IMG/VR virus record: IMGVR_UViG_3300037484_000104
Span: 1 to 64,000 of that record
Strand: one strand, 5' to 3'
Origin: a virus
Length of the DNA: 64,000 bases
This document shows, one piece after another, positions 5,679-54,128 of this stretch. Within the stretch, counting starts at the first letter, position 1. Each line of letters starts with the position of its first letter. Both the position numbers and the translations under genes were made by a program. A model generated the notes under the pieces. It saw only the letters and a list, made by a program, of their open reading frames with translations. It made no database searches and was not told the DNA's origin.

Positions 5679-8600
5679 ATGCCAAATACTATAGATCCTA
5701 TTACAGGATTACAAGAACATATATTTACAGACGAGAATAACGAGAGGACCTATGACCCAATTCTAGGTCCTTCTTATTCGTACTATCCAACAGAAGAAAC
5801 TGGAAATCAACTTGGTTCCAAATATGATGAATCTATCCAACCATTTGTTGATTTAGAAAAAACTAGGGGAGATAGACAATCTACTTTTGCACAATTTAGT
5901 TCAGCAATACAACAGGCTGCTGTAGGAGAAGTACTTGGAGGTACAATAGAAGGTTTAGGATACTTACTAGATGTAGAACAATACTCTAATCTAGCTAAAG
6001 GTACTGAACAAGAATTTGGTAACTGGTTTAGTGATCTAGGTAAAGGATTACGTACATGGTCAGAAGAAGCTACTCCTATATATAAAACATATGAGGATGG
6101 GGAATTTGCACCAAATAAAGCTAGTTGGTGGATGAGTAACATACCTTCTGTAGCATCAACTCTATCTCTAATTATACCATCTGCTGGAGTAGTTAGGGGA
6201 TTGTCATTATTAGGTAAAGCTACTAAGATTGGTGAGGAAATGGGATTAGCAACTAGATGGGCAGCTAAAGGATTAACTCAAGCTGTAGTATCCAGACATA
6301 TGGAAAATATGATGGCAGCATCAGGTACATTTAATGAACTGTACGAAGATGGTATATCTAAGGGAATGAGTAAAGAGGACGCTACAAAACTTGCAGCTAA
6401 TGGAGCAGCTAATACATATCAAATGGATTGGGTTATGTTAGCTCAAGACTTACCACAGTATCTCTTACTTAATAGATCTTTTAGTAAAGCATCTTTAGAT
6501 AATACTATTGCTACTGCTCGTGCTATGGGTAAATCTGTAGCCCCAGTATTTGGTAAGAAAGGTGCTGCAATTACTTGGGATATGTTGACAGAAGGTGGTG
6601 AGGAGGCTTATCAATATATAGTTGGTGAGGAAGCTAAATATCAGGCTCAGAAGGCTTTTGATCCATCAATAGAATCATCTTTCTCAGACAGACTTAGTAA
6701 TTATACTAAGAATGGAGAGCTGTGGACTAGTGCTTTCTTTGGAGCACTTGGTGCAGGAGTTACTCAAACTGCTGGTAAAGCAATTAATAAACTTACTCAA
6801 GGTATTAAAGATCCTCGTGTAGAAGATATACAGTCTTGGGGAAGTCAATTTAGTTATTGGAATCAACGATTAAAAGAAGCTCAGGAATCTGAAGACGGAT
6901 TATCAGAACGTTATATCAAAGATAATTTATGGAGCACTATAGGAACTAAAGCAGCTTCTGTAGGTAATACTCGTAATGCTATGGACTTCTTAGAAGCTAT
7001 GCAGAAACCTACTCAAGAAGATTTAGAAACGTTTGGAGTTAACGAAGATGATCTAAAAGTATTTAAATCTGAGATACCTAAAGGAGTAGAACAATTAAAA
7101 CGTATAGGTGAGTTATATAACTTCAATTCTAGAAAGTATGAACCTAATCGTGCAGCATTAGTAACACAATTACAATCTCAATTGGAGAATGGAGTAAAAC
7201 ATAGGGAAGAATTAAGTAACCGAGTAAATCAAAAGAGACAACAGCTTAATTATCTAGATGACTTATACAAAACTCCTTTTATCTCAGAATATGTTACAAA
7301 CAAAACTGAGTTAATAAATCTAAAGAAATCAATTAAGTTATTTGAGAAACTATCTACTAAAGATAATATACCTGAAAGAGAGAAGATAGCTTATACAGAT
7401 GCTTTAAATAGATCTAAGAAAGAATTAGAAGTAGTTACTACTAAAGTAAAAGAACTAAGAAGTGCATTCGACTCTAAGATAGAGAAAGGTGATACTCAAG
7501 AAATTAAAGATACTAAGAAAGCTAAACAAGAGATACTTGAACAGATAGATAAAATTACTGCTCCAGCATTAGATGAATATATGTCTACTAAGCAACAATT
7601 AGATCTATTTGACAATCATATTAAATCGTTACAAAACTCTTTATTTGATATAGAGAATGGAAAATCCATATCTACTGAAAAAGAAAGAGCTAACTACGAA
7701 GAACAGAAAGCTACTGAAAAAGCTGAGGCTAAAGAATATCTACCTACTATAGATGATCTAGTTCAAGATGATCAAGGTACTTATAAAGTTACCTCTGAAA
7801 ATGATGAGGATGATACTATTGAATTACATCTATTAGATGAGAAAGGTGAGATGATTTCTGGAGCTGCTACAAAAGTTGTTCCTAGGTCCTCTGTTGACTT
7901 ATATGCCAAAAAAGGGGATAAAGAAGCTCCTGATTCAATTGAACCTATAAATGATATAGATATACCAACTAATATACGAAATATCGACTATGAGCCTAAA
8001 AGAGGCCTTAAATCGGTTGTTGAGGCTATTACATATCGTGGAGCTAATTACAATGAACAACTAGGAAAGTTTATAACAGATACCAGAAATCAAGAGTTAG
8101 ACAATTACGTATCTAATCCTAGTAATAAGTTAGAAGGAGATGAGGTTAGTATGTTTATTGATACTAAAACTACTTTCTCTAGATTCTGGAATATCAATAA
8201 AGTAATTAAATATAAGTTAGATAAGGGGGAATTCTTAACTCCTGATGAAGCTAATAAACTACTAAACTCCTTACATCTTGTAGCTGGTAAAGAAGTATTT
8301 GATCAGGTTGTTGATAAGATGCCTATAGGAATAGTTTATAAAACTAATGAAGGTAAAGAGTTTAAAGATGGGATATACTATCATGACACTGATTATGTTG
8401 ATAAACATCTTATAGTTCCTAGTAAAGAAAAGGATCCTATTGCTTATAAGAATAAGGAAAGGGAATTAGTTAGAGATACTCGTAAGAAGATCTTGTATTC
8501 ATTACTTACTGGAAATAACGTAGTAATGTCTAATATTAAGAGAACACAAGGAGTTCCTAACAATACTAAGAATATTAACAATATTGCCACAATACTTAAA

Positions 8601-11600
8601 CAAGATCCTAATAAAGTAGAAATTGGTATAGTAGACTCTACTAATAAAGCTTGGGTGAGTGACGGTAATTACTTATCATCAGGTAAGTTACCTTATATGG
8701 GATACAGTGGGAATATCATGTTTACTACTGATAAGACTTGTGACGGCACTAAAGGTGCTATCAAAGCTAATATAGCTAAACTTACTCCTGAACATGCTGC
8801 AATATTATGGGATGCAATCTATTTAAAGAATAAGAAAGGATCTGGTGGTAATCAGGCTCAATTTATAAGAGATGATATTAAGAATCTAACTGTAGGAGAA
8901 GCTATAAATTTACTAGCTTTATATGGACCTATTACTAATTTATCACATCCATCTAATGCTGAGAAGAATATGCAGCATTTAGAAAACAAACAACTTTATG
9001 TAGAGAAAGGGTTCTTACATTTTGGTACTAATGTTATCAATTTAAGTGGTTTATATAAAGGATTAGGTGATATAAATAAAGATAGGACTAGATTCATAGA
9101 ATGGGCTACTAATAATAAGAACTATAGTGTATCTAAGAAACCATTTGGTAAGATTGGACCTACTATAAATTCACCTATTAATAGAGAATACAAATTAGGT
9201 TCGTGGGAAGCAACTAAGAATGATACACAAGCTGGTATACTTATTAAACACATGGCTCTTACTACTGATGTAGAAGAGTTTGAAAATACTGGATCTCTAT
9301 ATCACGCTCCTGTAGTAATTATAGATCCCAAATCATTAAAGTCAATACCTGGATCAACTACTAAGAAGACTCAGGCTAAAGCTACAACACAAGTTAATAC
9401 TATTCAAGCTAAGGAATCTAGTAAACCTACTACTAAAGTTAAACCTAATCTCAATGGATTAACTATAATTAAAGATAAGAATACCGATTTAGATACAGAT
9501 ATTATAGCTAATTTATCTGATGAATCTGTTATTTACAATATAACTAATACTAGTTATGAAGTAAAATCTGGAGTATACGAAACTGAAACTAAACAAGATA
9601 AACTATTTGAAATACAGAATGGTAAGTTTGTCTTATATAGTAAATCTCTAAGAGATACTTTAGGATTAGATATAAAGGGTGAGAGTGAAGAAGTTGAAAT
9701 GTCTGATACTAATATCACTAGAATTAATAGATTTCTATCTAGACAGGTTAATGTACAAGTAGATACTAAGAATACTAAAGAAAATATAATTGAAGAAGTT
9801 AAGGAATTACCTAAAGTAGAATCTAATGAAGTGATCAAACCAGAAGACTATGATCCTACTCTAACATTTGAAAATAAAGGTGGATTTGGTAGTGCTCTAG
9901 CAGATATGTTAGTACCATCAACTACTCCAGTTAAATACACTAAGTGGAATCAAAAGAAGGAATTAGGTTGGTTATCAGATAAGTTAGGTGATGTTCCTGT
10001 AGAAGTAATAGATGGATTAATCTATATAGCAAAGGGTAATAAAAAGGCATTTGGTCAATTGCAAAGAGATAGTATATTACTATCTAATGTAGCTTTACAA
10101 GGAACTACTTATCATGAGGCATTCCATAGAGTGTCAATGCTATATCTAGAAGAGTCTGCTAGACAATCTATGTATAATGAAGCTAGAATTAAGTACAAAC
10201 TTAAAGATAGTACAGATAGAAAAGTAGAAGAGTTCTTAGCTGAAGAGTTTAGAAACTACGTAATTACTCAAGAACAGCTTGGTGTAGTTGGTAAAGTAGC
10301 TAAGTTCTTTAAAGAGTTATACCAGTTAGTTAAATTAATATTTACTGGAACTAATTCATTAGAACAATCTGATATAGATAAGTTATTTAATAATATACAG
10401 AAAGGTAAGTTTAAGTACAATAAAGTATTATCTGATAACTTAAAGAAATGGATTGATAATCCTAATCTTGAATATAGGGATATCCAATTAGATCAGATAG
10501 ATAGTTATAAGCATTTTAAACAGATTATAAAAGGTTTGTCTGCTGAATTACTATCAGGAGTTAGAAGTAAGTTATTCAAAGAAGCTACTAGTAAATATGA
10601 GGTAATAGGTGTAATAGATTCTGTAGAGCAAATAAACTTTGATAAGTTAAAAAGTGATATACAAACTGGTCAAATAGGTCATTACACTAAATTAGCTAAG
10701 AATAGATTGTATGAACTAGATATGATCACTAAAGGGCAAATAAGCCCTGAATTAGCCTCACTACTGAAAGATCGTTATAAGGTTAGTGATATGAACCAGA
10801 TAAAAGAGAACTTGTCACAGGAAGCCTCTAATGCCACTAAAATCAAGGATCTGTATAAAGAGGTAATAGATCACTATGATGATATATATAAACCAGCTAT
10901 AACAGATTATATCTATTCGGAGTTATCAATTAAGAAGTTAAATGATGAGTCACAAGATGAAGAGGTAGGTAACGAGATAGTTAAGTATGATAAATCTTCC
11001 TATGAGTTTAGTGCTAAGGATAATATGCAGAGTTCTATCAAGTTCTTGGTATCTAACCTTAAACTATCTGATACAAGAAATACTGTTACTGGACTAGTTG
11101 AAATAGCTCCAATGGGAGAGGTATGGAGTAAGTTGTTAACTAACTTATCTCATCTTGACACTGTTGAAGATATGATAAAAGTATTAGATATAATAGGTGA
11201 TACAAATGCATATCAACCATATAAAGACTTATCTAAGTATCTGAAGATGTCTAGTGAATTAACTAGAACTCAATTTCAGACTACTATGAAACAACATAGA
11301 CATAATTTTATTAATACTATAGTAGAAGTTACTGATAATGATGGTCAGTTAAATTATGAGTTTAGATTCATGGATGCAGACTTACATTCTGCTTCTAGAA
11401 TGTTATTAAAGGAATGGACTGAAAACTTTATCAAAAGTGATTTCTTTTCTCAAGATAAATTTAATGATAAGTTATTTAAGAAATTACAGAGTGATTACGA
11501 TAGTGCTGTAAAAGAATTAAGAGAAGATATCAAAGGATCTATTGAATTAGATCAAACTACTTATAACGATCATTTAAATAGATTCACAGAGTTATTTAAT

Positions 11601-14600
11601 AGATTAGGTATAAATATTAATAAGGAAACTTTAGCATTAGGATCTACTGACATAATTGAAATTGGTAGAGCATCTAATAAAGAAGAGGCTCTATACTTAC
11701 TTATGAGTGCAGACTTATCATACTTATTTAGTAAAGACAGTAGTTTACAAAAACTTGTTAAGGGTGATATTACAGATAATAAGAAAGTTTTATCTAATGA
11801 AAAGATAGTAGATAAACTAGCTGAATTATATGCTATAGTTAATCCCATGGACTTATCTGACACAGTATTAGGGCCAGAAGGTAATAAACACTATAAATAC
11901 TCACTCCCTACTTATGTAACTGATATTGTTAAGAAATTAAGGGAAGATGCTGACTTTAAAGAGAAGCTACTGAAAGATCCTTTTAATAGAGGTTCGTACA
12001 TACTTAATAGTGACACTAGTAATTTATCAATAGGTACATTTAATACTATACTTATTAATAATACTGGAGATGATGGTAGAGATTATTTAGCTATGTCTCC
12101 AACTGAAGACTTCCTATACAAACTTAGCGCCACTAGAGCTGGATACTTTATGTTACCTACTCTTGCAGATAGAAAGACATACCCACCTATTAAAGGAGTT
12201 GAACTTCCTGAGATTAAGTATGAGATAGGTCCAAATGGTCCAGTATTACCTGAATGGGTATTAGATATATACTTTAATTACACTAAAGCTGAGAGAGATA
12301 GGATAACTACTGCTCAACAGTTTATAGAAGATAGTAAAGTATCTGATGAGAAATATAAGTCTCTAAGTGATATACAAAAGAATAGACTATCTTTATATCA
12401 AGAAGGTGGTAAGGAGAAGTATATTGATATAGAAAAATTAGTAGAAAATTACCATTATAAAACTAGTGGTAAGTATGTAATTATTGATGCTAAAGAAAGT
12501 ATATCTAAACCTAATGCTTTACGTCATATCTTATTTCCTTCACTAGAAGGATTAACTGAGGATAAATGGAGATCTAAAATACGGGAGGACTTAGCTAATA
12601 GAATTGATAATACATTTGATGAGGCTAAAGATCTTAATATAATTACTAATAATCAGAATATCCTACTTAATAAAGTTACTGTAGATAAATTAACTAATGA
12701 TTTTAATGGAGATACTAAATTAGCTCTATCTTCAATGATTGCAGATTTTGAGATTAAGACTCAGATTGCTTCTATTGAAACTATGATGTTGTTTATGGGA
12801 GATGTAGCTTTCTACAAATCAGATAAAGAAAGTGGTAGTCCATTTGAAGAATATGTAAAACGTTTATCAGTTGTTACATCTAGCGGTGGATTACTTAGAG
12901 GTGAAGTTCCTGGAGAGTTTGAAAATACTCAATATAATGTAACTACTTTATATGACCAAGAATTAACCAGTGCTTGGTATGATATACTATATAAAAAGCA
13001 AGAAGAGATACTTAACAAGAAATATACTGATAAAGAATATGTTAAGAAGTTATTAACTAACTTACTTAGAGATTATAAAGGTAAGATTAATCCTACAGAT
13101 GCTCAAGTATTTATATCTCCAGAAATGCATAGAGAAATTGCTATACGTAAAGGAGAGTGGTCAGATAAGAAACAAATTGCTTATGAATTATTACAATCAG
13201 ATGAAAAACTTACTCCTGAACAGGAACAAGACTCTCTTAATGTAGTAATGCAACCATTAAAGTATGTTTACTTTGATAGACTATCAGAAGATACTAGTAG
13301 TACAGACTCTTTAATGATACCTACATATGATAAGATGTCTATGGCTACCTTATTCAGACGTTTTACTAAAGGAACTCAATTAGATGAGTTACTGGATAGA
13401 ATGGAAGGAGTAGGTAGATATCAGGGATCTGATAAGATTCACATGGTTAAGTTTGAATCTGCTGTTAAAGTAGGTAAGAGACGTAGAATTAACTTATTAG
13501 AAAATACTGAAGGGGGTAAATTAGATATTATTAAACCTACTAGAATTAGTGATTTATCAAATGCATCTACATATAAACAGAACTTTGAATATTTAAGACA
13601 TCAAGTTGTTACTGATCCTCACGATACAGAAGATACTTTATTTGGATCACAAGTAAAGAAAGTACCTCAAGGCAATGTATTACAGGATGCTGACTACACT
13701 ATAAATGGTGAGTTGGTTAAAGGTAAGGATGTTCTTAATGCTATTAACAAATCTCTAGGATTACTGTCTGATAAAGGTATAAATAAGTTATTAAATAAAT
13801 TAGGTGTAGATAAAGATGGGGTTATAGACGAAGAATTATTCTATAAGACACTGCAGGATGAAGCTACTAAAGCTGGGATGCCTGAAACAGTTCTGGAATA
13901 CCTAAGAAAAGTAGATAATAAAGGTAATCACATTCCTATTGATCTATTACCAGATAGAAAGTGGATATATCAGAGATTGATATCTCTAGTAAATAAACAT
14001 GGGATTGATTTAAAGCTTCCTGGTAATCAGTTAATACAACAATCTGGTTTTGCATCAGGTAATTTAGATTCTACATTTAAAGATAAGAGTAATAACCTTA
14101 GATTCTTATTTAATGATAATGGTGAAATTAAAGGTGTAGAAGCTGCTGTATCTGTGCAACTATTTAAAAGTGTTATTCCTAATTATAAGAATAAATCGTA
14201 TCAAGAAAAAGTAGATTGGTTAAATGCTAATGAAGGTGTACTAGAAGGATTAGGTTATCGTATTCCTACACAAGGTCAGAACTCTACAGTACCTATTACA
14301 GTTGCTCAGTTCTTACCAGAGAATATTGGAGATGTTATAGTCCTACCTAATGAGTTTACAGCACTTACAGGATCTGACTTTGATATAGATAAATTATTCT
14401 TTGTAAGATATAATTATACTACAGATGAAACCGGTAAGGCTAATAAAGTTAATATATCTACTGGCACTACTGAAGAAGCAGTACAAAGTAGGTACCTGAA
14501 TTATATACAAGAAGTAATTGATGATTCACCTAGATTTACTAAAGATGAGGAAATTGCTCTTAGACATCTATATGCTGAGAAATTCAGATTTAGAACTAGA

Positions 14601-17600
14601 AAAGCAGACTTATTTGGTGAAGAAGGTACTTTGTATAAAGTATATCTAGATAGATTTAATAACTTATATTCGGCTATAAACTCTGCATTAAAAGCTAATG
14701 ATCCTGATTCTGCAGCACAGTGGTTAACTGAATATATAGAAGTAAAATCTAAACTTACAGACTTTGATTTCTATAAAGACTCTCTCACTGAGATATATGA
14801 GGATATAAATTTAATAAAAAATAACATAGAGTTAATTAAAGAAACTCTAAAAGATAATGAAGTACTTCCAACAATTGATGACTTTAGGACATGGGGAATT
14901 GAGAAGCAACAGACAAGAAAAGCCTTACAGAATCATTTACTTGATAACTATAGGGGTATTCTTCTTAGTGAGCATAATTTTACTTACGCTAGCACTCCTC
15001 TTGGAATAACAACTAACAAATTAAAGACTTTATCTAGTATTATAACTCCTATTGAAGAAACCAAACCTCTCTGGCAATTGGGTGCTGTAGCACAAGCTAG
15101 GATTAAGTATAAATATTCTGGCGGTAAAGGAGGGACAGGTCCAGAATCTCTTAACAACGTACATCACATTATGTGTCAAGTTGCTGGAGTATCCTTTAAC
15201 TATAACATTGGATTAGGTAAAGTTGATGAAGATGGTAATACATCTCTACATGATATAGATAGTTTACCAGAAGAAGATGGTCAAATAATAGCTATATCAG
15301 ATTGGTTATCAGCTTTGATTGATGCTCACGTTGATATTGCAAAAGACCCTTATATTATTAACTTAAATGTTGTAAGTGATACATATGATGTAGCTAACTT
15401 ATTAGTTCGTATAGGTATGGGATCTAAAACATTTCAATTCTTACCACAACCTATTCTTAAAGAATTAGTTCACGAACTTGATAGTGAAAAAGGTGAGATA
15501 AAAGTATCTAGTGTAACTAAACCTATAGATAAAATTAGAGAGAAATACGAGAAATTAGCTGGGAAAACTAAAGTAGAAAGTGGTTATAATCCTTTCAACG
15601 ATGATTTAGTCGGACTAATTACTATGGATAAATCAGAGAGGAATGAGATGTGGTATGCTAAACAATTAGCGATACTTAATTTATTTGATACTCTAGATAA
15701 AGGTGCTGGTAAACAGTTAAATGGATTAGTAATGTCTTCTAGGGTTGATACTAAGAAGTACGCTACTGATTTAATATCTAATGAATTATATATCCAAGCA
15801 ATGAAGGATATGTATAAGGAAGATAACTTTACTAATTTAGATAAACTACTAGGATTTGATCCAGAAACTGAACTATCTACACAATCTGATTATAGTACAT
15901 TCTTGGGAACATATTATAATAATGGTCCTGCAATGCTAAGACGATTATTTGGTAATAAGAGTATTACTGGTACTAAATCATTTCAAACCGCTCTCTATAG
16001 AATAGGTAATTTAGCTGGTATAACTAAGTTTACTAAAGATAGGAAGGGTAAGTTAAATAGGATTGGTGATGAAATATACTCAGCGTTAATGGGTAAGTTC
16101 TTTACAGAAGAAATAGGATTAACTGAGGATGATGTAAAAACTATCATGACTAGTGTCCCAGCTTTTGTAAGAGATATAAAGACTAAACATCCCGAACTAT
16201 CTGATAATGTATTAATGGAATCACTTGTAAAAGGATTAGAAACAGTTGATGATCTAACTTTTACTGGTATACCTTCTATTAAATCTGATGACAATAGAGA
16301 GGATTATATGTATGCTTGGAAAGAATTACTACAATCTAATAATAAAGATGTAGTAAGTTTTGCTAAAAGATTATATGTATACTCATATTTCACATCTGGA
16401 TATAAACAAGGGTTATTTAGTTTATTCCAATATGTACCTGCTGAACTACATGTTAAGTTTAGAATGAATGAGCAGGAAGTTAGTTTTAAGGACTACACTA
16501 CTAAGTTATTAGATACAATGAATAATGAGGAACAAGGTGCTATAGAATTACTTGGGATGTCAGATACTATCTTTAAGAACAACTGGATGAATACTATGTT
16601 TACTCCAAAGGTATATGAGAGAGCAATAAGTTCTCCAATAACTGTAGGTAAAGACAAGGATAAACAAACTATTGTATCTACCATATTTACTAGAAAGAAG
16701 AATAGTAAGACCAGTAAATGGGATGTAAATGTTAAACAAGTTGGTGAAAACTCTATGGGAGATCCTATATATCAACCTTATATACTATATCAAATTGATA
16801 AGGATATGAGTATGTTGCTGGAATATATTGGTTATATCAATGATAAGTGGAGAACTCCTGTATATAAAACTGTACACAAGTTAGGTTATAATAATAAAGG
16901 TAGAAGAATTGTTGAATATGGGTTCACTAAATCTATAATTAAACGTAATAATAGTATTAAGACATTAGATGATGATAAGATTATGAAGTTAATGAAAGAT
17001 ATGAGTAGTTATAGTGATTTCGTATATATACCTATTGAGAATAGAGGAATTGTAGAAAAGCCTGTTATAGACTCACCACAAGTAAATACTACTGAAAAGA
17101 CTTATACTGTCACTGAAGAGTTAAAAACGTATAGTGGTCCTATAAATAGCCTTAAATCGAATCAGATATTCGTATTTGGTTCTAACACAGAAGGTAGACA
17201 TGGGAAAGGAGCCGCACTAACTGCTAAACAAAAGTTTGGAGCAATTTATGGACAATCAGAAGGATTACAGGGACAATCGTTTGCTATTATAACAAAGGAT
17301 TTAACTAAGACTGTTCATCCAAGTAGATCTGAGGATCAAATAAAAGAACAGATTTCTAAACTCTATGAATTTGCTAAACAAAATCCGACTAAGGAATTAA
17401 TGGTAGCTTACTCTGGAGAGGGAACTAACTTAAATGCATACACTCCACAAGAAATGGCTAACATATTTGGTTTGTTTAGTATCCCAAATAACGTTATATT
17501 TGAAGAGAAATTCGCTAAGTTAATACCTAATACCACTGAAGATAGATCGTTGAATGTAGGGGCTGAAAATAGCCTAGAATCAAGTCCTATTACTCAAGAA

Positions 17601-17702
17601 CAACTAGATCCTATTAATGACAAATTAGAAGTTCCTATTACAATGGATGAATGGAATAATATGACAAAAGATGAACAAGATAACCTATTAAACTGCTTAT
17701 AA
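5679..17702 (+). CDS. Giant virion-packaged DNA-dependent RNA polymerase (crAss-like) with zincin motif and C-terminal macrodomain-like region
   Basis: 4007 aa. GYRIPTQG and TGSDFDIDK catalytic motif (14376-14390); HEAFH zincin motif (10113-10127); FVFGSN.EGRHG.GAA domain at about 17160-17520. Confidence 0.9.
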   Translation: MPNTIDPITGLQEHIFTDENNERTYDPILGPSYSYYPTEETGNQLGSKYDESIQPFVDLEKTRGDRQSTFAQFSSAIQQAAVGEVLGGTIEGLGYLLDVEQYSNLAKGTEQEFGNWFSDLGKGLRTWSEEATPIYKTYEDGEFAPNKASWWMSNIPSVASTLSLIIPSAGVVRGLSLLGKATKIGEEMGLATRWAAKGLTQAVVSRHMENMMAASGTFNELYEDGISKGMSKEDATKLAANGAANTYQMDWVMLAQDLPQYLLLNRSFSKASLDNTIATARAMGKSVAPVFGKKGAAITWDMLTEGGEEAYQYIVGEEAKYQAQKAFDPSIESSFSDRLSNYTKNGELWTSAFFGALGAGVTQTAGKAINKLTQGIKDPRVEDIQSWGSQFSYWNQRLKEAQESEDGLSERYIKDNLWSTIGTKAASVGNTRNAMDFLEAMQKPTQEDLETFGVNEDDLKVFKSEIPKGVEQLKRIGELYNFNSRKYEPNRAALVTQLQSQLENGVKHREELSNRVNQKRQQLNYLDDLYKTPFISEYVTNKTELINLKKSIKLFEKLSTKDNIPEREKIAYTDALNRSKKELEVVTTKVKELRSAFDSKIEKGDTQEIKDTKKAKQEILEQIDKITAPALDEYMSTKQQLDLFDNHIKSLQNSLFDIENGKSISTEKERANYEEQKATEKAEAKEYLPTIDDLVQDDQGTYKVTSENDEDDTIELHLLDEKGEMISGAATKVVPRSSVDLYAKKGDKEAPDSIEPINDIDIPTNIRNIDYEPKRGLKSVVEAITYRGANYNEQLGKFITDTRNQELDNYVSNPSNKLEGDEVSMFIDTKTTFSRFWNINKVIKYKLDKGEFLTPDEANKLLNSLHLVAGKEVFDQVVDKMPIGIVYKTNEGKEFKDGIYYHDTDYVDKHLIVPSKEKDPIAYKNKERELVRDTRKKILYSLLTGNNVVMSNIKRTQGVPNNTKNINNIATILKQDPNKVEIGIVDSTNKAWVSDGNYLSSGKLPYMGYSGNIMFTTDKTCDGTKGAIKANIAKLTPEHAAILWDAIYLKNKKGSGGNQAQFIRDDIKNLTVGEAINLLALYGPITNLSHPSNAEKNMQHLENKQLYVEKGFLHFGTNVINLSGLYKGLGDINKDRTRFIEWATNNKNYSVSKKPFGKIGPTINSPINREYKLGSWEATKNDTQAGILIKHMALTTDVEEFENTGSLYHAPVVIIDPKSLKSIPGSTTKKTQAKATTQVNTIQAKESSKPTTKVKPNLNGLTIIKDKNTDLDTDIIANLSDESVIYNITNTSYEVKSGVYETETKQDKLFEIQNGKFVLYSKSLRDTLGLDIKGESEEVEMSDTNITRINRFLSRQVNVQVDTKNTKENIIEEVKELPKVESNEVIKPEDYDPTLTFENKGGFGSALADMLVPSTTPVKYTKWNQKKELGWLSDKLGDVPVEVIDGLIYIAKGNKKAFGQLQRDSILLSNVALQGTTYHEAFHRVSMLYLEESARQSMYNEARIKYKLKDSTDRKVEEFLAEEFRNYVITQEQLGVVGKVAKFFKELYQLVKLIFTGTNSLEQSDIDKLFNNIQKGKFKYNKVLSDNLKKWIDNPNLEYRDIQLDQIDSYKHFKQIIKGLSAELLSGVRSKLFKEATSKYEVIGVIDSVEQINFDKLKSDIQTGQIGHYTKLAKNRLYELDMITKGQISPELASLLKDRYKVSDMNQIKENLSQEASNATKIKDLYKEVIDHYDDIYKPAITDYIYSELSIKKLNDESQDEEVGNEIVKYDKSSYEFSAKDNMQSSIKFLVSNLKLSDTRNTVTGLVEIAPMGEVWSKLLTNLSHLDTVEDMIKVLDIIGDTNAYQPYKDLSKYLKMSSELTRTQFQTTMKQHRHNFINTIVEVTDNDGQLNYEFRFMDADLHSASRMLLKEWTENFIKSDFFSQDKFNDKLFKKLQSDYDSAVKELREDIKGSIELDQTTYNDHLNRFTELFNRLGININKETLALGSTDIIEIGRASNKEEALYLLMSADLSYLFSKDSSLQKLVKGDITDNKKVLSNEKIVDKLAELYAIVNPMDLSDTVLGPEGNKHYKYSLPTYVTDIVKKLREDADFKEKLLKDPFNRGSYILNSDTSNLSIGTFNTILINNTGDDGRDYLAMSPTEDFLYKLSATRAGYFMLPTLADRKTYPPIKGVELPEIKYEIGPNGPVLPEWVLDIYFNYTKAERDRITTAQQFIEDSKVSDEKYKSLSDIQKNRLSLYQEGGKEKYIDIEKLVENYHYKTSGKYVIIDAKESISKPNALRHILFPSLEGLTEDKWRSKIREDLANRIDNTFDEAKDLNIITNNQNILLNKVTVDKLTNDFNGDTKLALSSMIADFEIKTQIASIETMMLFMGDVAFYKSDKESGSPFEEYVKRLSVVTSSGGLLRGEVPGEFENTQYNVTTLYDQELTSAWYDILYKKQEEILNKKYTDKEYVKKLLTNLLRDYKGKINPTDAQVFISPEMHREIAIRKGEWSDKKQIAYELLQSDEKLTPEQEQDSLNVVMQPLKYVYFDRLSEDTSSTDSLMIPTYDKMSMATLFRRFTKGTQLDELLDRMEGVGRYQGSDKIHMVKFESAVKVGKRRRINLLENTEGGKLDIIKPTRISDLSNASTYKQNFEYLRHQVVTDPHDTEDTLFGSQVKKVPQGNVLQDADYTINGELVKGKDVLNAINKSLGLLSDKGINKLLNKLGVDKDGVIDEELFYKTLQDEATKAGMPETVLEYLRKVDNKGNHIPIDLLPDRKWIYQRLISLVNKHGIDLKLPGNQLIQQSGFASGNLDSTFKDKSNNLRFLFNDNGEIKGVEAAVSVQLFKSVIPNYKNKSYQEKVDWLNANEGVLEGLGYRIPTQGQNSTVPITVAQFLPENIGDVIVLPNEFTALTGSDFDIDKLFFVRYNYTTDETGKANKVNISTGTTEEAVQSRYLNYIQEVIDDSPRFTKDEEIALRHLYAEKFRFRTRKADLFGEEGTLYKVYLDRFNNLYSAINSALKANDPDSAAQWLTEYIEVKSKLTDFDFYKDSLTEIYEDINLIKNNIELIKETLKDNEVLPTIDDFRTWGIEKQQTRKALQNHLLDNYRGILLSEHNFTYASTPLGITTNKLKTLSSIITPIEETKPLWQLGAVAQARIKYKYSGGKGGTGPESLNNVHHIMCQVAGVSFNYNIGLGKVDEDGNTSLHDIDSLPEEDGQIIAISDWLSALIDAHVDIAKDPYIINLNVVSDTYDVANLLVRIGMGSKTFQFLPQPILKELVHELDSEKGEIKVSSVTKPIDKIREKYEKLAGKTKVESGYNPFNDDLVGLITMDKSERNEMWYAKQLAILNLFDTLDKGAGKQLNGLVMSSRVDTKKYATDLISNELYIQAMKDMYKEDNFTNLDKLLGFDPETELSTQSDYSTFLGTYYNNGPAMLRRLFGNKSITGTKSFQTALYRIGNLAGITKFTKDRKGKLNRIGDEIYSALMGKFFTEEIGLTEDDVKTIMTSVPAFVRDIKTKHPELSDNVLMESLVKGLETVDDLTFTGIPSIKSDDNREDYMYAWKELLQSNNKDVVSFAKRLYVYSYFTSGYKQGLFSLFQYVPAELHVKFRMNEQEVSFKDYTTKLLDTMNNEEQGAIELLGMSDTIFKNNWMNTMFTPKVYERAISSPITVGKDKDKQTIVSTIFTRKKNSKTSKWDVNVKQVGENSMGDPIYQPYILYQIDKDMSMLLEYIGYINDKWRTPVYKTVHKLGYNNKGRRIVEYGFTKSIIKRNNSIKTLDDDKIMKLMKDMSSYSDFVYIPIENRGIVEKPVIDSPQVNTTEKTYTVTEELKTYSGPINSLKSNQIFVFGSNTEGRHGKGAALTAKQKFGAIYGQSEGLQGQSFAIITKDLTKTVHPSRSEDQIKEQISKLYEFAKQNPTKELMVAYSGEGTNLNAYTPQEMANIFGLFSIPNNVIFEEKFAKLIPNTTEDRSLNVGAENSLESSPITQEQLDPINDKLEVPITMDEWNNMTKDEQDNLLNCL

Positions 17703-43482: not shown

Positions 43483-44157
43483 TTATAGTAGTGATATAAA
43501 CGTATTAACTTCAGCTATAGTTATAATTGAGTCTTTGTTTAGATCAAATCTTCTGTTATGTTTGTATATTTCAGTACGATTTGAATGGCGAGTTTCAATA
43601 ATAGTTGAATCATGTTTTCCAATCATTGCAGGAACAAATGTAGCCATATATAGAGTAGACTCTTTTACATGTTTCTTTCCTTTCAATGCTTTCTTGTAGT
43701 ATAAATGTACAAAATCTAATTGTTCAGATGTTGACATATTATATAACTTTTCAGTAGTAGTTCCTAGACTAATTGCTGTACTAGGTATAAATTGTATTAG
43801 ACCTACTGCTCTTCCTTTACTGATTCTTAAGCTATCATCTTTAGGATCATTGGTCTGTCTATTAACAGCTTTAGTACTTCCTCCAGATTCTGCTCTTATT
43901 ATTTTATAAAGCCATTTGGTTTTTATTCCTAAATCATCTGCTATCTTTCTCACTTTTCTTCTATCAGACTTTGTAAACTTGTCTAACATTTTATAATGAG
44001 TAAGAATTGTAACATCAATAGAGTCTTTATTTATCTCTAATGGAGTTATTACAGATTCTTGGTTTAAGATCTGTTTCTGCACTTGAGGTATTGATAATTC
44101 AGGTGCAAATAGTGAATTAAACCAAAACATTAGGAATACGAATATGTATTGTTTCAT
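43483..44157 (-). CDS. Lytic transglycosylase (lysozyme-like fold) with N-terminal signal/anchor
   Basis: AESGG catalytic Glu, AVGLIQF, EQLDFV..YY, C-terminal DLNKDS EF-hand-like loop. Likely start MKQYIFVFLMFW at 44157; frame is open to 44283. Confidence 0.8.
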   Translation of the reverse strand: MKQYIFVFLMFWFNSLFAPELSIPQVQKQILNQESVITPLEINKDSIDVTILTHYKMLDKFTKSDRRKVRKIADDLGIKTKWLYKIIRAESGGSTKAVNRQTNDPKDDSLRISKGRAVGLIQFIPSTAISLGTTTEKLYNMSTSEQLDFVHLYYKKALKGKKHVKESTLYMATFVPAMIGKHDSTIIETRHSNRTEIYKHNRRFDLNKDSIITIAEVNTFISLL

Positions 44158-44415
44158 ATTAGTTGTTTTGGTTTGACATAGCTTTCTATTTCTAAAAAGC
44201 ATTAACGGTGTTATTATACGTAAGGCTTTAGATAAGGGTTTACGATAATCACTAGTTATATTTGCTTCTAAGCTTTGATGCATAGCTCACCTATATTTGA
44301 TATACAGGGTGATAGGACTACCTCGGAAAGGTCATAACTTTAGTCCCAACCCCAGATATTTGAGTATCTGAGGCCAATTTGTGATTAGTTTAAAGTCCAA
44401 GTTCCCCAACTTAGA

Positions 44416-46562: not shown

Positions 46563-47000
46563 TTATTTAAAATTTAAAACGTTTTTGATTTTAGTGATAA
46601 TTGTTAATAAATTTGATTTTTTAGGTAGATTTGACTCTTCCCCAAGAGTAAATATTTTTTCGAACTTATTTAATTTTCCGATTAAAATTGGATCATCTAC
46701 TTCAATTAAACTTGAAGCAAACTCAATGTTTTCAATACTATTTTGATTTTTGTAATTGATATGTGTTTTGATCCATACATTCGCTAGAGGGGATGATGTA
46801 TTACCCCATTTACCTTTGTCACACATCGCTTTCGATGATGCGTAGTTTTTCTTATAAGGTTTAATAAAGATAACTTGTTGTTTTTTATCTCCATCTATTA
46901 CCTCATACACCAATTTGATACCTCCCATTTTGGTATCCTTTATTATTTTACTACCAGAAATTTCGGGAATATCTTGACTAATTATTCTATATTTTGACAT
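46563..47000 (-). CDS. Hypothetical protein
   Basis: 145-aa ORF. Confidence 0.6.
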   Translation of the reverse strand: MSKYRIISQDIPEISGSKIIKDTKMGGIKLVYEVIDGDKKQQVIFIKPYKKNYASSKAMCDKGKWGNTSSPLANVWIKTHINYKNQNSIENIEFASSLIEVDDPILIGKLNKFEKIFTLGEESNLPKKSNLLTIITKIKNVLNFK

Positions 47001-47019
47001 ATTAATTAGATTAAAGATA

Positions 47020-48220
47020 AAAAAGTAAGCAGTCCTTTAACAGCAGAAGCCAATTATTGGTCGTTTCTGAGAATTCTGTAACTATTGCTAATTTTGTAAT
47101 TCTACTGCTTATTTGTAATATACGAATGAGCTGTCTATTTTTATATAGACTTACTAGTTTATTGTTTACGATATTTAAATCGTTATAAATACACTATATC
47201 CTTATGGTTTTCTAAACCTATCACTTATGAGATGATTAAGTCAAGTGTTACGGTATTATTAGCCATATCCGTAGGCCACTTATCTTCTAACTATATGTCT
47301 CCATATTTCACTATGAAGCTGATTAATTCATGTACAACCTTACAGTTGTGTTGCAACTAATCAATAATTATTGATAAATACAAGAAAGTAAATTTGTTAT
47401 TTTTGGTAATATTGTTTGGGAAGGTATTTCTGTAACTCAGAATGAATTACATGGAGATAATGTCTCATATACATTGGATTGTATAGGACGTAAATATCGA
47501 CCTTAATTTACACATTTCATTGTATATTGAATTCTATACAACTTCCTTTCAACCTGTCGTAATTGGAATATTCGTACAGTATGTGACTCCAGTTCATTTT
47601 CTTAAGTACTGGTAACAATCAGGTGTTTATACCCATTTCCCAGGGACACCACAAACTGAATTATCTTTTAATACACCAGTGATTTGACACTGAATCTGAG
47701 ACCACCTATTTACGATAGGCTCCACGTTCTACGTAGATGTATACTAAAATTACTTCTATAAAATAACCGACTTCTTCTACCGCATTTGTTTGTCAAAGGG
47801 TTTTACTCTAAAGAACACCTACATTTTATGTTAATTTGTCTTCGTTAGCCTTTACACAACCATCTGTTGGGAATCTCACCCTATCGCTAATCATAATGTT
47901 ATACAAGAGGTATTATAAACAAATAGTATTAGTATTTGAATTATGTACTAGAAGGAGTTTATCATAGAAATATGAATAACTTCTATAATAAACTCGTTAA
48001 TGTAAGATAGTCAAACTGTGAACGAATCACTTTTCTCATTACTGATAGTTTGAACTGAAGTACACTATCTTCTAATAATAGGTCTTTATAATACGAAGGA
48101 TCTGCTACAATCCTGACGACTTTAGAGTAATAACTTAGCGCTATGAGTTACCTCGTAGTTATTATTGTTCTCTAGTGAGTTTAATTGTAAGTTGTGTTGT
48201 GTACATTTAAGGATGTACGT
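47020..48220 (-). ncRNA. Candidate large structured ncRNA (or ncRNA cluster), ~1.2 kb
   Basis: No ORF of 60 aa or more; dense hairpins with GNRA and T-loop-like loops on the minus strand. Confidence 0.55.
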
Positions 48221-48226
48221 TCTCCT

Positions 48227-48513
48227 TTAGTTTTTATAACCTGGAATTTTTGACATAAATTTATACTTATCCAATAGTTCTCTGGCTTCTTTTCTTGACA
48301 ATCGTTGTTTAGACTCTTTATTTCTAAATCTATTACAAACCTTGTCAATATTTTTTGATGTATAATTTCTATTTGTTATCATATTTCCTCCCAAGCTTCA
48401 AATTTCAATGTTCTTAGTTGACGTATAGTGAACATACTAATCAATATTGATGTAACCGTAGTTCCCTGTGCTTTGTAGATTTTTCCATTAAATTGGAAAA
48501 GAAAGATTCTCAT
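48227..48513 (-). CDS. Two coupled microproteins (MRIFLFQFNGK... and MITNRNYTSK...), not in the ORF track
   Basis: Consecutive short ORFs joined by an ATGA overlap, continuing the operon. Confidence 0.45.
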
Positions 48514-49915
48514 AATATTTTCGTATTATTCGTTTGTAACTATCTCTTTGAAAATCTCCTGATATAGGGATAATTTCATCAATATATTCAGAACTGCTAG
48601 TTTTTGAATTGATGATAATCCTATATTGTTCAAGTGTTAAAACAAATCTGTCATAAGATAGTCCTAGATAATCTAAGACATCTTGATTAAGATGTACCAG
48701 AAGAATTAATTTGTCGTTTGATGATACTAGTAAGCATGATTGTATAGTATTAATATGATTAAATGTGTTTTCAGCATCACTTGTCATAATATATCCAAAC
48801 TTACCATGTATAGTATCTTCTTTTCTACCATCAAAGAATATGTGTTGATTGAAGTCATTAGAAAGATCAATCTGTAAATTATCTTCTTGAAATAGACTAG
48901 ATGAAGGTAATTCATCACTTAATAGTCTGCCAACAGATCCTTTTACATACTTTTCAGGTCTCTCATAAGATGTTATACCACATTCTTCAACTCTGCCAAA
49001 AGTTGTAGTGTAAGGTATTTTTAACCTATTTAATGTCCTCTCTATCTTTTGAGGTAGTGTAGAGTTTAGAATTATTAACTGTTGTAATTTGGGAAATAAC
49101 TTCTTTATTTTTGATTTAAGATAGTATTTTCTAATAAACCACAGTTTTAAATCCTTTAGAATGTTGTTTTTGAAATCCTCAACATTCTCAATGTATGTCT
49201 TATAGAGAAGTACGAAATCAAAAGCTGTAATTACTACAACTTCTGGCTCATACTCCTCTAACTCATTTCTTAAGCCATAAGTATCTTCATTATTGGGTAT
49301 TACTATTGTTATACCACATGTAAGTGGTAGTAATAGTCCAATTAGATAATTATAGGCAAATCCCATTTGTGCTAAGTAAATAGTGCTAGTATCGAATATT
49401 TTGTTTCTTCCAAGTAATACCATAGTATCAAGAATTTTATCATGATCTATATATATTGGATTTAATGCTCTTGGTGAAATTACTAATATTGATGTATTTG
49501 TTTCAGATAAATCTCCATCTTCTAATGAAAATTGTATAAATGTGTCTATCCAAAGTATGTTACATAGAATGCTAGAATTATTATATACAGTAGCATTATC
49601 CGTAATTACTAATTGAATATGAGATCTGGGTATTATTACAAGTAGGTCTTCAATATCTGATTTTATATCAAATAGTGCTAACCTATGCCTACTAAATAGT
49701 ATTGCAAAGAATGTAATTATCCACTCAACACTGTTATTAGCAACTAATAAAATCCTAATAGGAGATTCATATGCTTTGTTTAGTATTTCAGCAAGTGCTT
49801 TAGACTTTCCAAATATCTCCCTATAAGTATAACTTTTATCTCTCTGTATCACAAAGATATTTTCTAAATAGAGTTCAAAGAACGCTATAATTTTTTTAAT
49901 CAAGTTGCTTTTCAT
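48488..49915 (-). CDS. AMP-binding (ANL / long-chain acyl-CoA ligase-like) protein with degenerate catalytic motifs
   Basis: YTYRE, NSVEWIITFFA, FGRVECG (YGxTE-like), GSVGR and GRKEDTI; the TSGTTG P-loop and TGD are absent. Confidence 0.75.
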   Translation of the reverse strand: MKSNLIKKIIAFFELYLENIFVIQRDKSYTYREIFGKSKALAEILNKAYESPIRILLVANNSVEWIITFFAILFSRHRLALFDIKSDIEDLLVIIPRSHIQLVITDNATVYNNSSILCNILWIDTFIQFSLEDGDLSETNTSILVISPRALNPIYIDHDKILDTMVLLGRNKIFDTSTIYLAQMGFAYNYLIGLLLPLTCGITIVIPNNEDTYGLRNELEEYEPEVVVITAFDFVLLYKTYIENVEDFKNNILKDLKLWFIRKYYLKSKIKKLFPKLQQLIILNSTLPQKIERTLNRLKIPYTTTFGRVEECGITSYERPEKYVKGSVGRLLSDELPSSSLFQEDNLQIDLSNDFNQHIFFDGRKEDTIHGKFGYIMTSDAENTFNHINTIQSCLLVSSNDKLILLVHLNQDVLDYLGLSYDRFVLTLEQYRIIINSKTSSSEYIDEIIPISGDFQRDSYKRIIRKYYENLSFPI

Positions 49916-50970: not shown

Positions 50971-51366
50971 TTATTTAAGATGAGTTTTTCTAATCATTTC
51001 ACGAGCTAAGTCCATATCACCTTTGGTTTTAGTTAAATAACTTATTGCTTGTTTGATAGAGCATTTAGTAAAATCTCTTAACCTTTTTATTTCATTAGCT
51101 TCTGGAATGTAGGAAATAATTTCACTAACACTTCCATCTTCTAATACAAAGTAATCTCTTTTTTCAATAACTTTCGTGTTAGATTTAGTGTTCTGATCTA
51201 TAAAGTCTTCTTTATTACCAAAATAGATCTCATTTTTTTGTAAATCCAAAGATACGAAATGTATCTTATCTACTTCATCTCCTTTATAAGTAATAATTTT
51301 CATACCTTCTTCTTTAGCATATGAAACTATTTCTTTTATTAATTTTTCTAGTTTTAAATCCGTCAT
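50971..51366 (-). CDS. Protein with C-terminal EF-Ts N-terminal (UBA-like) domain
   Basis: EIKRLRDFTKCSIKQAISYLTKTKGDMDLAREMIRK resembles EF-Ts VKELRERTGAGMMDCKKAL.EANGDIELAIE.MRK. Confidence 0.7.
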   Translation of the reverse strand: MTDLKLEKLIKEIVSYAKEEGMKIITYKGDEVDKIHFVSLDLQKNEIYFGNKEDFIDQNTKSNTKVIEKRDYFVLEDGSVSEIISYIPEANEIKRLRDFTKCSIKQAISYLTKTKGDMDLAREMIRKTHLK

Positions 51367-53771: not shown

Positions 53772-54128
53772 TTATGATATTGTTACACTAGCACCAAGCT
53801 CTTCAAGTTCTGTTTTTAAAGCTTTAGCTTCAACTTCCGAGATGTTTTCCCTTAATGTTACTGGAACAGTATCAATTACTGCCTTTGCCTGCATTAAAGT
53901 TATATCAGAATTACTGTTTTTCCAATACTTTATAACATCCATTTTTTTAGGACCTGAGTCATTTAGAATAACGTTAAATGTGGATTTTACATCTTCTTTA
54001 ACTTCTTCTACTGCAGCTACTGCTACTGTTGGAGCAACGTATCCTAATAATTTTAGTTCTTCAACTAATTTACGAGCATCTTCTAAAGATAATCCATCTA
54101 TTGCTTTTGCTATTTCTTTTGGTGTCAT
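53772..54128 (-). CDS. rplL: Ribosomal protein bL12 (L7/L12), full length
   Basis: NTD LSLEDARKLVEELK, Ala/Val hinge, and CTD FNVIL..GPKK.DVIK...AK..ID..P...E.IS..EA..LK.ELEE.GA.V. Confidence 0.9.
   Translation of the reverse strand: MTPKEIAKAIDGLSLEDARKLVEELKLLGYVAPTVAVAAVEEVKEDVKSTFNVILNDSGPKKMDVIKYWKNSNSDITLMQAKAVIDTVPVTLRENISEVEAKALKTELEELGASVTIS

Follow-up and report, generated by a model that had tools for sequence, protein, structure and literature searches.

A candidate 1.2-kb structured non-coding RNA of a putative new family in crAss-like phages

What does a phage encode in a stretch of ~1.2 kb that holds no open reading frame (ORF)? The question is raised by the 64-kb window analysed here (the whole stretch of 64,000 nucleotides (nt), positions 1 to 64,000 of IMG/VR record IMGVR_UViG_3300037484_000104, to which coordinates refer unless a relative is named), where such a gap lies on the minus strand between an ANL-type (AMP-binding) gene upstream and a conserved gene of 145 amino acids (aa) downstream. 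A sequence-only reading of the window had proposed a giant structured non-coding RNA (ncRNA) at this place, and the proposal is supported by syntenic homologues and by covariation on the minus strand. The probability that 48229→47019 (minus strand) is the gene of an autonomously folding ncRNA of ~1.2 kb, representing a new family in a small, Suoliviridae-related clade of crAss-like phages, is put at roughly 75%. The family most likely consists of RNAs of 1.2–1.5 kb at a fixed place in the minus-strand block of non-structural genes. With high confidence, the stretch is a structured RNA element; that it is a discrete ncRNA acting in trans is probable.

As seen so far, the family comprises seven sequences in five lineages: the window sequence (WIN) with its relative L001, then L008, L009, L010 and L011 with L012. 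L001 (IMG/VR UViG_3300037483_000076) is collinear with the window, and L008–L012 were retrieved from IMG/VR by alignment (A4) of representatives of the ANL-type protein; ~20 further lineages of the ANL family (P0003–P0022) were left out of the RNA comparison. In L001 and in each of L008–L012, the ANL gene is followed, on its own strand, by an ORF-free gap of 1.26–1.5 kb, the search for homologues in related phages thus yielding syntenic homologous gaps in five further phage contigs. The order of ANL gene, RNA and 145-aa gene is the same in all five lineages. Conservation of the gap exceeds that of its surroundings: WIN and L001 are 96–100% identical across 47301–48200 versus 65–95% in the flanking coding DNA, and the WIN and L008 gaps share 62.6% identity over 1266 nt (E 1e-78) while their ANL proteins are merely 37% identical. 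The gaps of L009 and L011 are 69% identical over 837 nt, and a core around GGGUGAAAUUCCC is common to all lineages. A recent recombination had been considered to explain the 99% identity to L001, and became irrelevant once the distant lineages proved homologous.

Further searches brought no additional member. Neither the window region nor L009 as blastn query matched any GenBank phage, and one protein-pattern plus one DNA-pattern scan of metagenome contigs found no member of the family. A pattern scan of genome contigs returned two gammaproteobacterial matches (L004 and L005), which show no further similarity and were taken as chance. In IMG/VR, a second pattern brought no new member, recovering just five of the six contigs already known, and a looser core pattern added three unrelated small hairpins only. 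In these three (L013 476–520, L015 4530–4574 and L020 1744–1784), the hairpin with the GGUGAAAUUCC loop-stem immediately precedes the start of a gene (GUGAGGGUGAAAUUCCCUCAC) and may represent an independent small cis element.

The description of the region as ~1.2 kb free of ORFs was borne out in all frames, under alternative codes and by codon periodicity. Between the 145-aa gene and a block of small ORFs (48181–48513), no ORF of at least 60 aa is present in any frame of 47001–48180, and recoding of TAG as Q or of TGA as W opens no frame in the stretch. The substitutions between WIN and L008 are distributed over the three codon positions as 146/153/153 (P=0.89), so that three-base periodicity is absent from the stretch, in contrast to the neighbouring ANL gene under the same test (94/50/132). 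Rfam 15 gave nothing in the window at gathering scores and nothing inside the stretch at E≤10, in line with the view that the RNA falls into no known class; the gaps of L008–L011 likewise had no Rfam match at E≤5. As for DNA-level features, no iterons, no multi-copy direct or tandem repeats, no origin-like repeat structure and no anomaly of base composition were found in the stretch.

The proposed gene (47019–48229, minus strand; ~1,211 nt) is delimited by conservation and by a U-tract. At its 5′ limit conservation breaks sharply, identity to L001 being 96–100% from 48229 and the sequences being unalignable at 48230–48400; the U-tract marks the 3′ limit. The DNA that separates the ANL gene from the RNA (48227–48513 in the window, 7414–7830 in L001) appears to have been swapped, as it harbours ORFs of 44–55 aa in the window and, in L001, where it is ~180 nt longer, unrelated small ORFs and indels. 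L008–L012 are without these ORFs, and there the RNA therefore follows directly after the ANL stop codon.

Compensatory changes preserve the base pairing of the stretch, and the evidence favours the minus strand. Between WIN and L001, 39 alignment columns differ; in 12 of them, making up six pairs, both partners changed and can still pair, a further three are compatible with wobble pairing, and no pair of the consensus fold is broken. When the fold of minimum free energy (MFE) of WIN only was judged against L001, five compensatory pairs were counted where 0.14 were expected (P<1/5000). Most of the substitutions between the two sequences, all compensatory, fall into a small three-way junction (47201–47240, minus strand), which contains five of the six doubly changed pairs and no broken one; the sixth is at columns 882/909.

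Across lineages, the sequences were analysed by RNAalifold in two groups (A: WIN, L001 and L008; B: L009, L011 and L012), with column shuffles as controls. For the minus strand of group A, the consensus energy was −180.5 versus −102.9±6.3 in shuffled alignments (z=−12), and 75 compensatory pairs were found versus 40±5 (z=+6.5); the plus strand reached an energy of −155.7 and 59 compensatory pairs. Group B behaved similarly (energy z=−8.1; compensatory pairs z=+3.1), its plus strand again being weaker than its minus strand. The covariation for which the sequence-only reading had proposed a check is therefore present on the minus strand, above the level of the shuffled controls. Furthermore, when MFE folds of single sequences were judged by the partner sequence, compensatory pairs were again in excess (minus strand z=4.2 and 3.0; plus strand z=2.0 and 2.7); as one sequence is folded alone and judged by the other, the bias of RNAalifold is removed in this test. 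The MFE z-score over 1 kb was −3.1 for the minus strand and −1.6 for the plus strand.

The 5′ part of the RNA is organized around a long-range helix and an invariant core. It begins with the motif UAAAGGAGAAC and the hairpin GUACA-UCCUUAAA-UGUAC (48201–48229, minus strand), common to WIN, L001, L008 and L010, the stem in L008 being ACUUA/UGAGU by compensatory change. The helix P1 then closes a 5′ domain of ~345 nt by pairing two strands ~340 nt apart, ACACAACU (48190–48197, minus strand) and GGUUGUGU (47854–47861, minus strand). Its register is the same in all five lineages while its sequences differ: ACACAACU/GGUUGUGU in WIN, CAUAUAAGA/UCUUAUAUG in L008, GUAAAGCAU/AUGCUUUAC in L009, AAUAAGUAU/AUACUUAUU in L010 and GGUAAAGUAU/GUACUUUACU in L011. 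In every lineage the 3′ strand stands at a constant distance from the invariant core, and in four of the five a conserved AAAUG precedes the 5′ strand by 6–7 nt. Since MAFFT misplaces the 5′ strand of P1 in L010–L012, P1, the helix Pa described below and the palindrome were scored by hand-anchored tables. Shuffles of P1 within each lineage are individually weak (P=0.005–0.4) because the strands are rich in A, U and G, and the support for P1 lies in the register shared by five lineages.

The core itself is a T-loop hairpin, GGG-UGAGAUU-CCC (47869–47881, minus strand), which recurs as GGGUGA(A/G)AUUCCC, the family core, in all seven sequences; its stem is GGG/CCC in four lineages and, by compensatory change, AGG/CCU in L009. 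The hairpin is flanked by the helix Pa, formed by UUAGC (47886–47890, minus strand) and by GCUAA (47845–47849), the latter being followed by a conserved CGAAGAC (together 47838–47849, minus strand). Pa reads UUAGC/GCUAA in WIN, CUAAC/GUUAG in L008, GCAAC/GUUGU in L009, GAUAAC/GUUAUC in L010 and GACAAC/GUUGUC in L011, so that three variable pairs carry compensatory changes across lineages. Because Pa crosses P1, the core is pseudoknotted. Both the T-loop-like hairpin and the long stem that had been noticed from the letters are real features of the minus strand, the latter being a 17-bp hairpin in the folds, GAGUUUAUUAUAGAAGU/AUUUCUAUGAUAAACUC (47955–47995, minus strand), and the sole outstanding 200-nt window for folding energy (z=−6.3) is the one that holds it.

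Within the 5′ domain, the stem UAAUAACU/AGUUAUUA (48128–48164, minus strand), drawn from the local folds of five lineages and from the group A consensus, encloses a GAG-GUAA-CUC hairpin and a loop with the 8-nt palindrome UAGCGCUA (48136–48143, minus strand), a candidate site for symmetric kissing between RNA copies. At homologous columns, the palindrome is UAGCGCUA in WIN and L001, GAGAUCUC in L008, CGAAUUCG in L009, CAAAUUUG in L011 and L012, and GCAUGC in L010. With the frequency of equal or longer palindromes in same-sized windows of each RNA as background, the product of the frequencies is 6e-6, or ~1e-4 without the discovery sequence. An 8-nt palindrome is unable to pair within itself, and its core occurs once only within the RNA in WIN, L009 and L010, so that a second RNA copy is the expected partner. 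A covarying self-complementary loop has served as the criterion for the intermolecular kissing loops L9.3 of OLE and L21a of GOLLD (bioRxiv 10.1101/2024.12.08.627333). By this analogy, we consider the chances to be about even that the RNA self-associates via the palindrome.

The central and 3′ parts consist of smaller hairpins and a closed 3′ domain. Two central hairpins, CCUAU-CGUAA-AUAGG and CAGUG-UCAAAU-CACUG (47677–47720, minus strand), have conserved loops and covarying stems, which in L008 are CUUAC/GUAAG and UUGGUG/CAUCAA and which covary in L010 as well. Of the individual hairpins predicted from the letters, CAGUG-UCAAAU-CACUG (47677–47692), ACAACU-GUAA-GGUUGU (47334–47349) and CUUCAUA-GUGAAA-UAUGGAG (47299–47318) are present. 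A further one (47704–47720) exists as a hairpin, though its supposed GNRA tetraloop is actually the conserved pentaloop CGUAA, and the supposed CCCUG-GGAA-AUGGG shrinks to a stem of three CCC/GGG pairs. An A/C-rich linker (47388–47420, minus strand), also foreseen, is apparently unpaired in the folds. The 3′ domain (47019–47111, minus strand), found in all lineages, was recognized correctly as a terminal helix plus U-tract: the closing helix UAAGCAGU(A)/ACUGCUUA(C) encloses a 69-nt insert and is followed by U6. Across the family, the helix takes the form (G/A)UAAGCAGU/ACUGCUUAC, with GUAGU/ACUAC as a compensatory variant in L009 and L011; it has 8–9 bp, encloses a folded insert of 69–149 nt, and always has U5–6 next to it. 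In L011 and L012, an A/T-rich spacer of ~260 nt lies between the U-tract and the conserved MTKY with which the downstream gene starts (L011 9021–9282), and the ATG at 9021 of L011 opens an N-terminal extension that is probably spurious.

The window is the first part of a single-contig phage genome of 92,398 bp with a G+C content of 30%, and all genes from 21 kb to 61 kb of the window are on the minus strand. Its terminase, portal and capsid genes match crAss-type PHROGs, and its capsid protein is 60–64% identical to those of Suoliviridae (Crassvirales) phages such as cr118_1. A 4007-aa ORF (5679–17702, plus strand), of which the C-terminal domain alone matched a PHROG (phrog_2072, unknown function), has the size expected of the large virion-packaged RNA polymerase common to all crAss-like phages and is, by that size, taken to be a putative virion RNA polymerase. 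A phage-encoded bL12 homologue is located ~5.5 kb upstream of the RNA (118 aa; 53772–54128, minus strand; ribosomal L7/L12 C-terminal domain, PF00542, 3.8e-19), and a 266-aa protein (43483–44283, minus strand) carries an SLT lytic transglycosylase domain; the ORF at 50971–51366, labelled ‘EF-Ts-like', has no Pfam match.

The upstream neighbour of the RNA (48488–49915, minus strand) was assigned to the ANL type by Pfam (PF00501, 2e-15). Its family comprises ~21 full-length representatives at 50% clustering, with 28–42% identity, and a member stands upstream of the gap in all six retrieved contigs. Motifs resembling the ANL core motifs YGxVE and GRxxD..G are kept, while the alignment (A4) has no recognizable TSGTTGxPKG P-loop, the consensus at that place being YSPRxL. 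The downstream neighbour (46563–47000, minus strand) is 34–47% identical in the five lineages, where its product has 145–170 aa. The 145-aa protein belongs to no Pfam or PHROG family, and its AF2 model (pLDDT 72) has no PDB match. In a tblastn search of GenBank phages, neither of the two flanking proteins found a match.

How might such an RNA work? It would be a discrete transcript that ends at the U-tract, and it may accumulate during infection, as the abundant, early and persistent intergenic RNAs of phage phi14:2 do. Two or more copies might join via the palindromic loop into a homodimer or a larger assembly, by analogy with OLE, GOLLD and ROOL. Once formed, the assembly may have a trans-acting role, as a scaffold or a sequestering particle, in which the conserved proteins on either side possibly take part. 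A more specific picture is tentative and, taken as a whole, rather unlikely: the RNA could form the core of a new RNA-based particle, a palindrome-joined dimer or cage larger than those of GOLLD and ROOL, which the ANL-type and 145-aa proteins might decorate or modify and which would capture or shield host or phage components early in infection.

Several observations weigh against a discrete, self-associating ncRNA. The mean MFE z-score of 200-nt windows inside the stretch is at background level (−1.61 versus −1.50 in flanking coding DNA), so that the comparison with shuffled sequences, suggested as a check at the outset, disclosed no excess of local stability. As stability is unexceptional, the case against chance is comparative rather than energetic, and here the covariation comes from five lineages aligned by MAFFT, with RNAalifold biased towards covarying structures. 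The 3′ end resembles a terminator, but its insert of 69–149 nt is atypical and a simple terminator scan gives no call. The palindrome of L010 has 6 nt only and is displaced by 1–2 nt, and the palindrome could also be the DNA site of a dimeric protein. At the 5′ end, k-mer enrichment and a sigma-70 scan gave no promoter, and in L008 and L010 the ANL stop codon overlaps with the 5′ motif or lies immediately beside it, which suggests that the RNA may be excised from a polycistronic transcript or stay in it.

These last two points also speak for the serious rival, a cis-acting role, in which the stretch would be a giant leader or intercistronic element that governs read-through, processing or stability within an operon of ANL gene, RNA and 145-aa gene. 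The stretch shares its strand with both neighbours in an order kept in five lineages, and in four lineages the closing helix and U-tract stand 18–30 nt before the downstream start codon. However, synteny is kept across the whole early region, and adjacency alone is therefore weak evidence for a role in cis. A length of 1.2–1.5 kb far exceeds that of any known leader, and a covarying palindrome with a pseudoknotted T-loop core suits a higher-order architecture rather than an expression platform. In addition, the real downstream start is ~260 nt away from the U-tract in L011, and a block of unrelated, variable ORFs parts the ANL gene from the RNA in WIN and L001. Overall, a cis-acting element is judged unlikely, with a chance that is small and still worth reckoning with.

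That the conservation serves DNA, in the form of a replication origin, a packaging site or a protein-binding region, is highly improbable. The stretch is indeed long, AT-rich and non-coding, lies on a strand that also bears replication genes, and contains several perfect palindromes; however, the iterons, tandem repeats and compositional anomaly looked for above are missing, the palindrome varies in sequence by lineage, unlike a conserved binding site, pairs ~340 nt apart covary, which a cruciform would not need, and the minus strand beats the plus strand in both consensus energy and compensatory pairs. Very little likelihood is likewise left to a ribozyme, a degenerate self-splicing intron or another mobile RNA between genes. 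In its favour stand the length of the RNA, its pseudoknotted core and its loops of T-loop and GNRA type, as large ribozymes typically have them, and many introns are reported in crAss-like phages (PMC7886860). However, no group I or group II intron, RNase P or small ribozyme of Rfam was matched in the window (E≤10) or in L008–L011 (E≤5), the stretch does not split a host gene (a variable block precedes it and a complete gene follows), and no intron-encoded ORF or reverse transcriptase is nearby. Finally, a decayed or recoded protein gene with incidental structure, to which the alternative genetic codes reported for some crAss-like phages (PMC7886860) would lend support, is effectively refuted by the closed frames under either recoding, the absent codon periodicity and the homologues, ORF-free in all five lineages yet conserved above the neighbouring genes.

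If the stretch is indeed the gene of a structured ncRNA, the annotation of such genomes would be corrected, as stretches of this kind are commonly filled with spurious small ORFs. Large structured RNAs besides rRNA are rare, and GOLLD and ROOL were shown to form RNA-only cages just recently. An unrelated and larger family in the Crassvirales, the order to which the most abundant gut phages belong, would then mark giant ornate RNAs as a recurrent phage invention. The strongly covarying 8-nt palindrome would be a new test case for the prediction of quaternary structure, and a structural explanation would be at hand for the abundant long non-coding transcripts of the sole crAss-like phage studied by RNA-seq.

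The 13-mer GGGUGAAAUUCCC is presumably identical to the P2/L2 T-loop hairpin of the FMN aptamer (RF00050), as it occurs in the ribD leader of B. subtilis. The likeness ends with this hairpin: the covariance model of the full six-helix aptamer gives no match, and the context of the FMN riboswitch is the 5′ leader of riboflavin genes, as opposed to an RNA of 1.2 kb. A literature search found no description of a structured giant RNA in crAss-like phages, and two long non-coding stretches of Crassvirales phages were compared. In cr118_1 (Suoliviridae), 1,920 nt are without annotated coding sequence (NC_055872 53706–55625, corresponding to L026 10707–12626); the stretch resembles the present one in its place inside a minus-strand block of small genes, after a gene of ~480 aa and before genes of 170–185 aa, while neither the RNA nor the flanking proteins have detectable homology to the present family and the GGUGAAAUUCC core is absent. 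In phi14:2, a crAss-like Cellulophaga phage, two long intergenic regions among the early genes (g004–g006) are transcribed above most genes, and their RNAs are present from the first time point and persistent (Drobysheva et al., bioRxiv 10.1101/2020.03.07.982082), which makes them the sole precedent for expression. The likeness lies in a stretch free of coding sequence (~1.7 kb there) that a Crassvirales phage carries between small early genes, on the strand of its neighbours; the flanking genes differ, no structure or covariation is reported for the phi14:2 regions, and between the phi14:2 stretch and the present family blastn and nhmmer gave noise only, the core motif being absent. RefSeq, for its part, dropped ~nine small hypothetical ORFs from that stretch of ~1.7 kb (NC_021806; L021 2905–4601) in 2020.

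The closest parallels are GOLLD (RF01998), ROOL (RF03087) and OLE (RF01071). In the searches given above (window E≤10; L008–L011 E≤5), none of their covariance models matched, including that of GOLLD with its conserved 3′ half. The present RNA, at 1.2–1.5 kb, is longer than these (~600–800 nt), and it belongs to a crAss-like phage, presumably of Bacteroidota, as against a prophage of Lactobacillales or of the rumen. Adjacent tRNA genes are a feature of GOLLD, whereas ARAGORN detected no tRNA gene in the 64-kb window; among the relatives, L008 (2725–2797) and L011 (1108–1180) each have a tRNA gene, located upstream of the ANL gene at a distance of a few kb. OLE, GOLLD and ROOL are RNA-only homo-oligomers, and oligomerization of the present RNA is suggested by its sequence. 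With the three it shares its great size, a covariation-supported structure of several domains, pseudoknots, and motifs of T-loop and GNRA type, and with GOLLD and ROOL also the encoding by a phage. As in OLE and GOLLD, a loop palindrome changes and yet stays self-complementary. Two features of the large ornate self-assembling RNAs, a class defined by function rather than by homology, are found here: a length above 500 nt with a multi-domain structure supported by covariation and a P1/Pa pseudoknot, and a covarying self-complementary loop.

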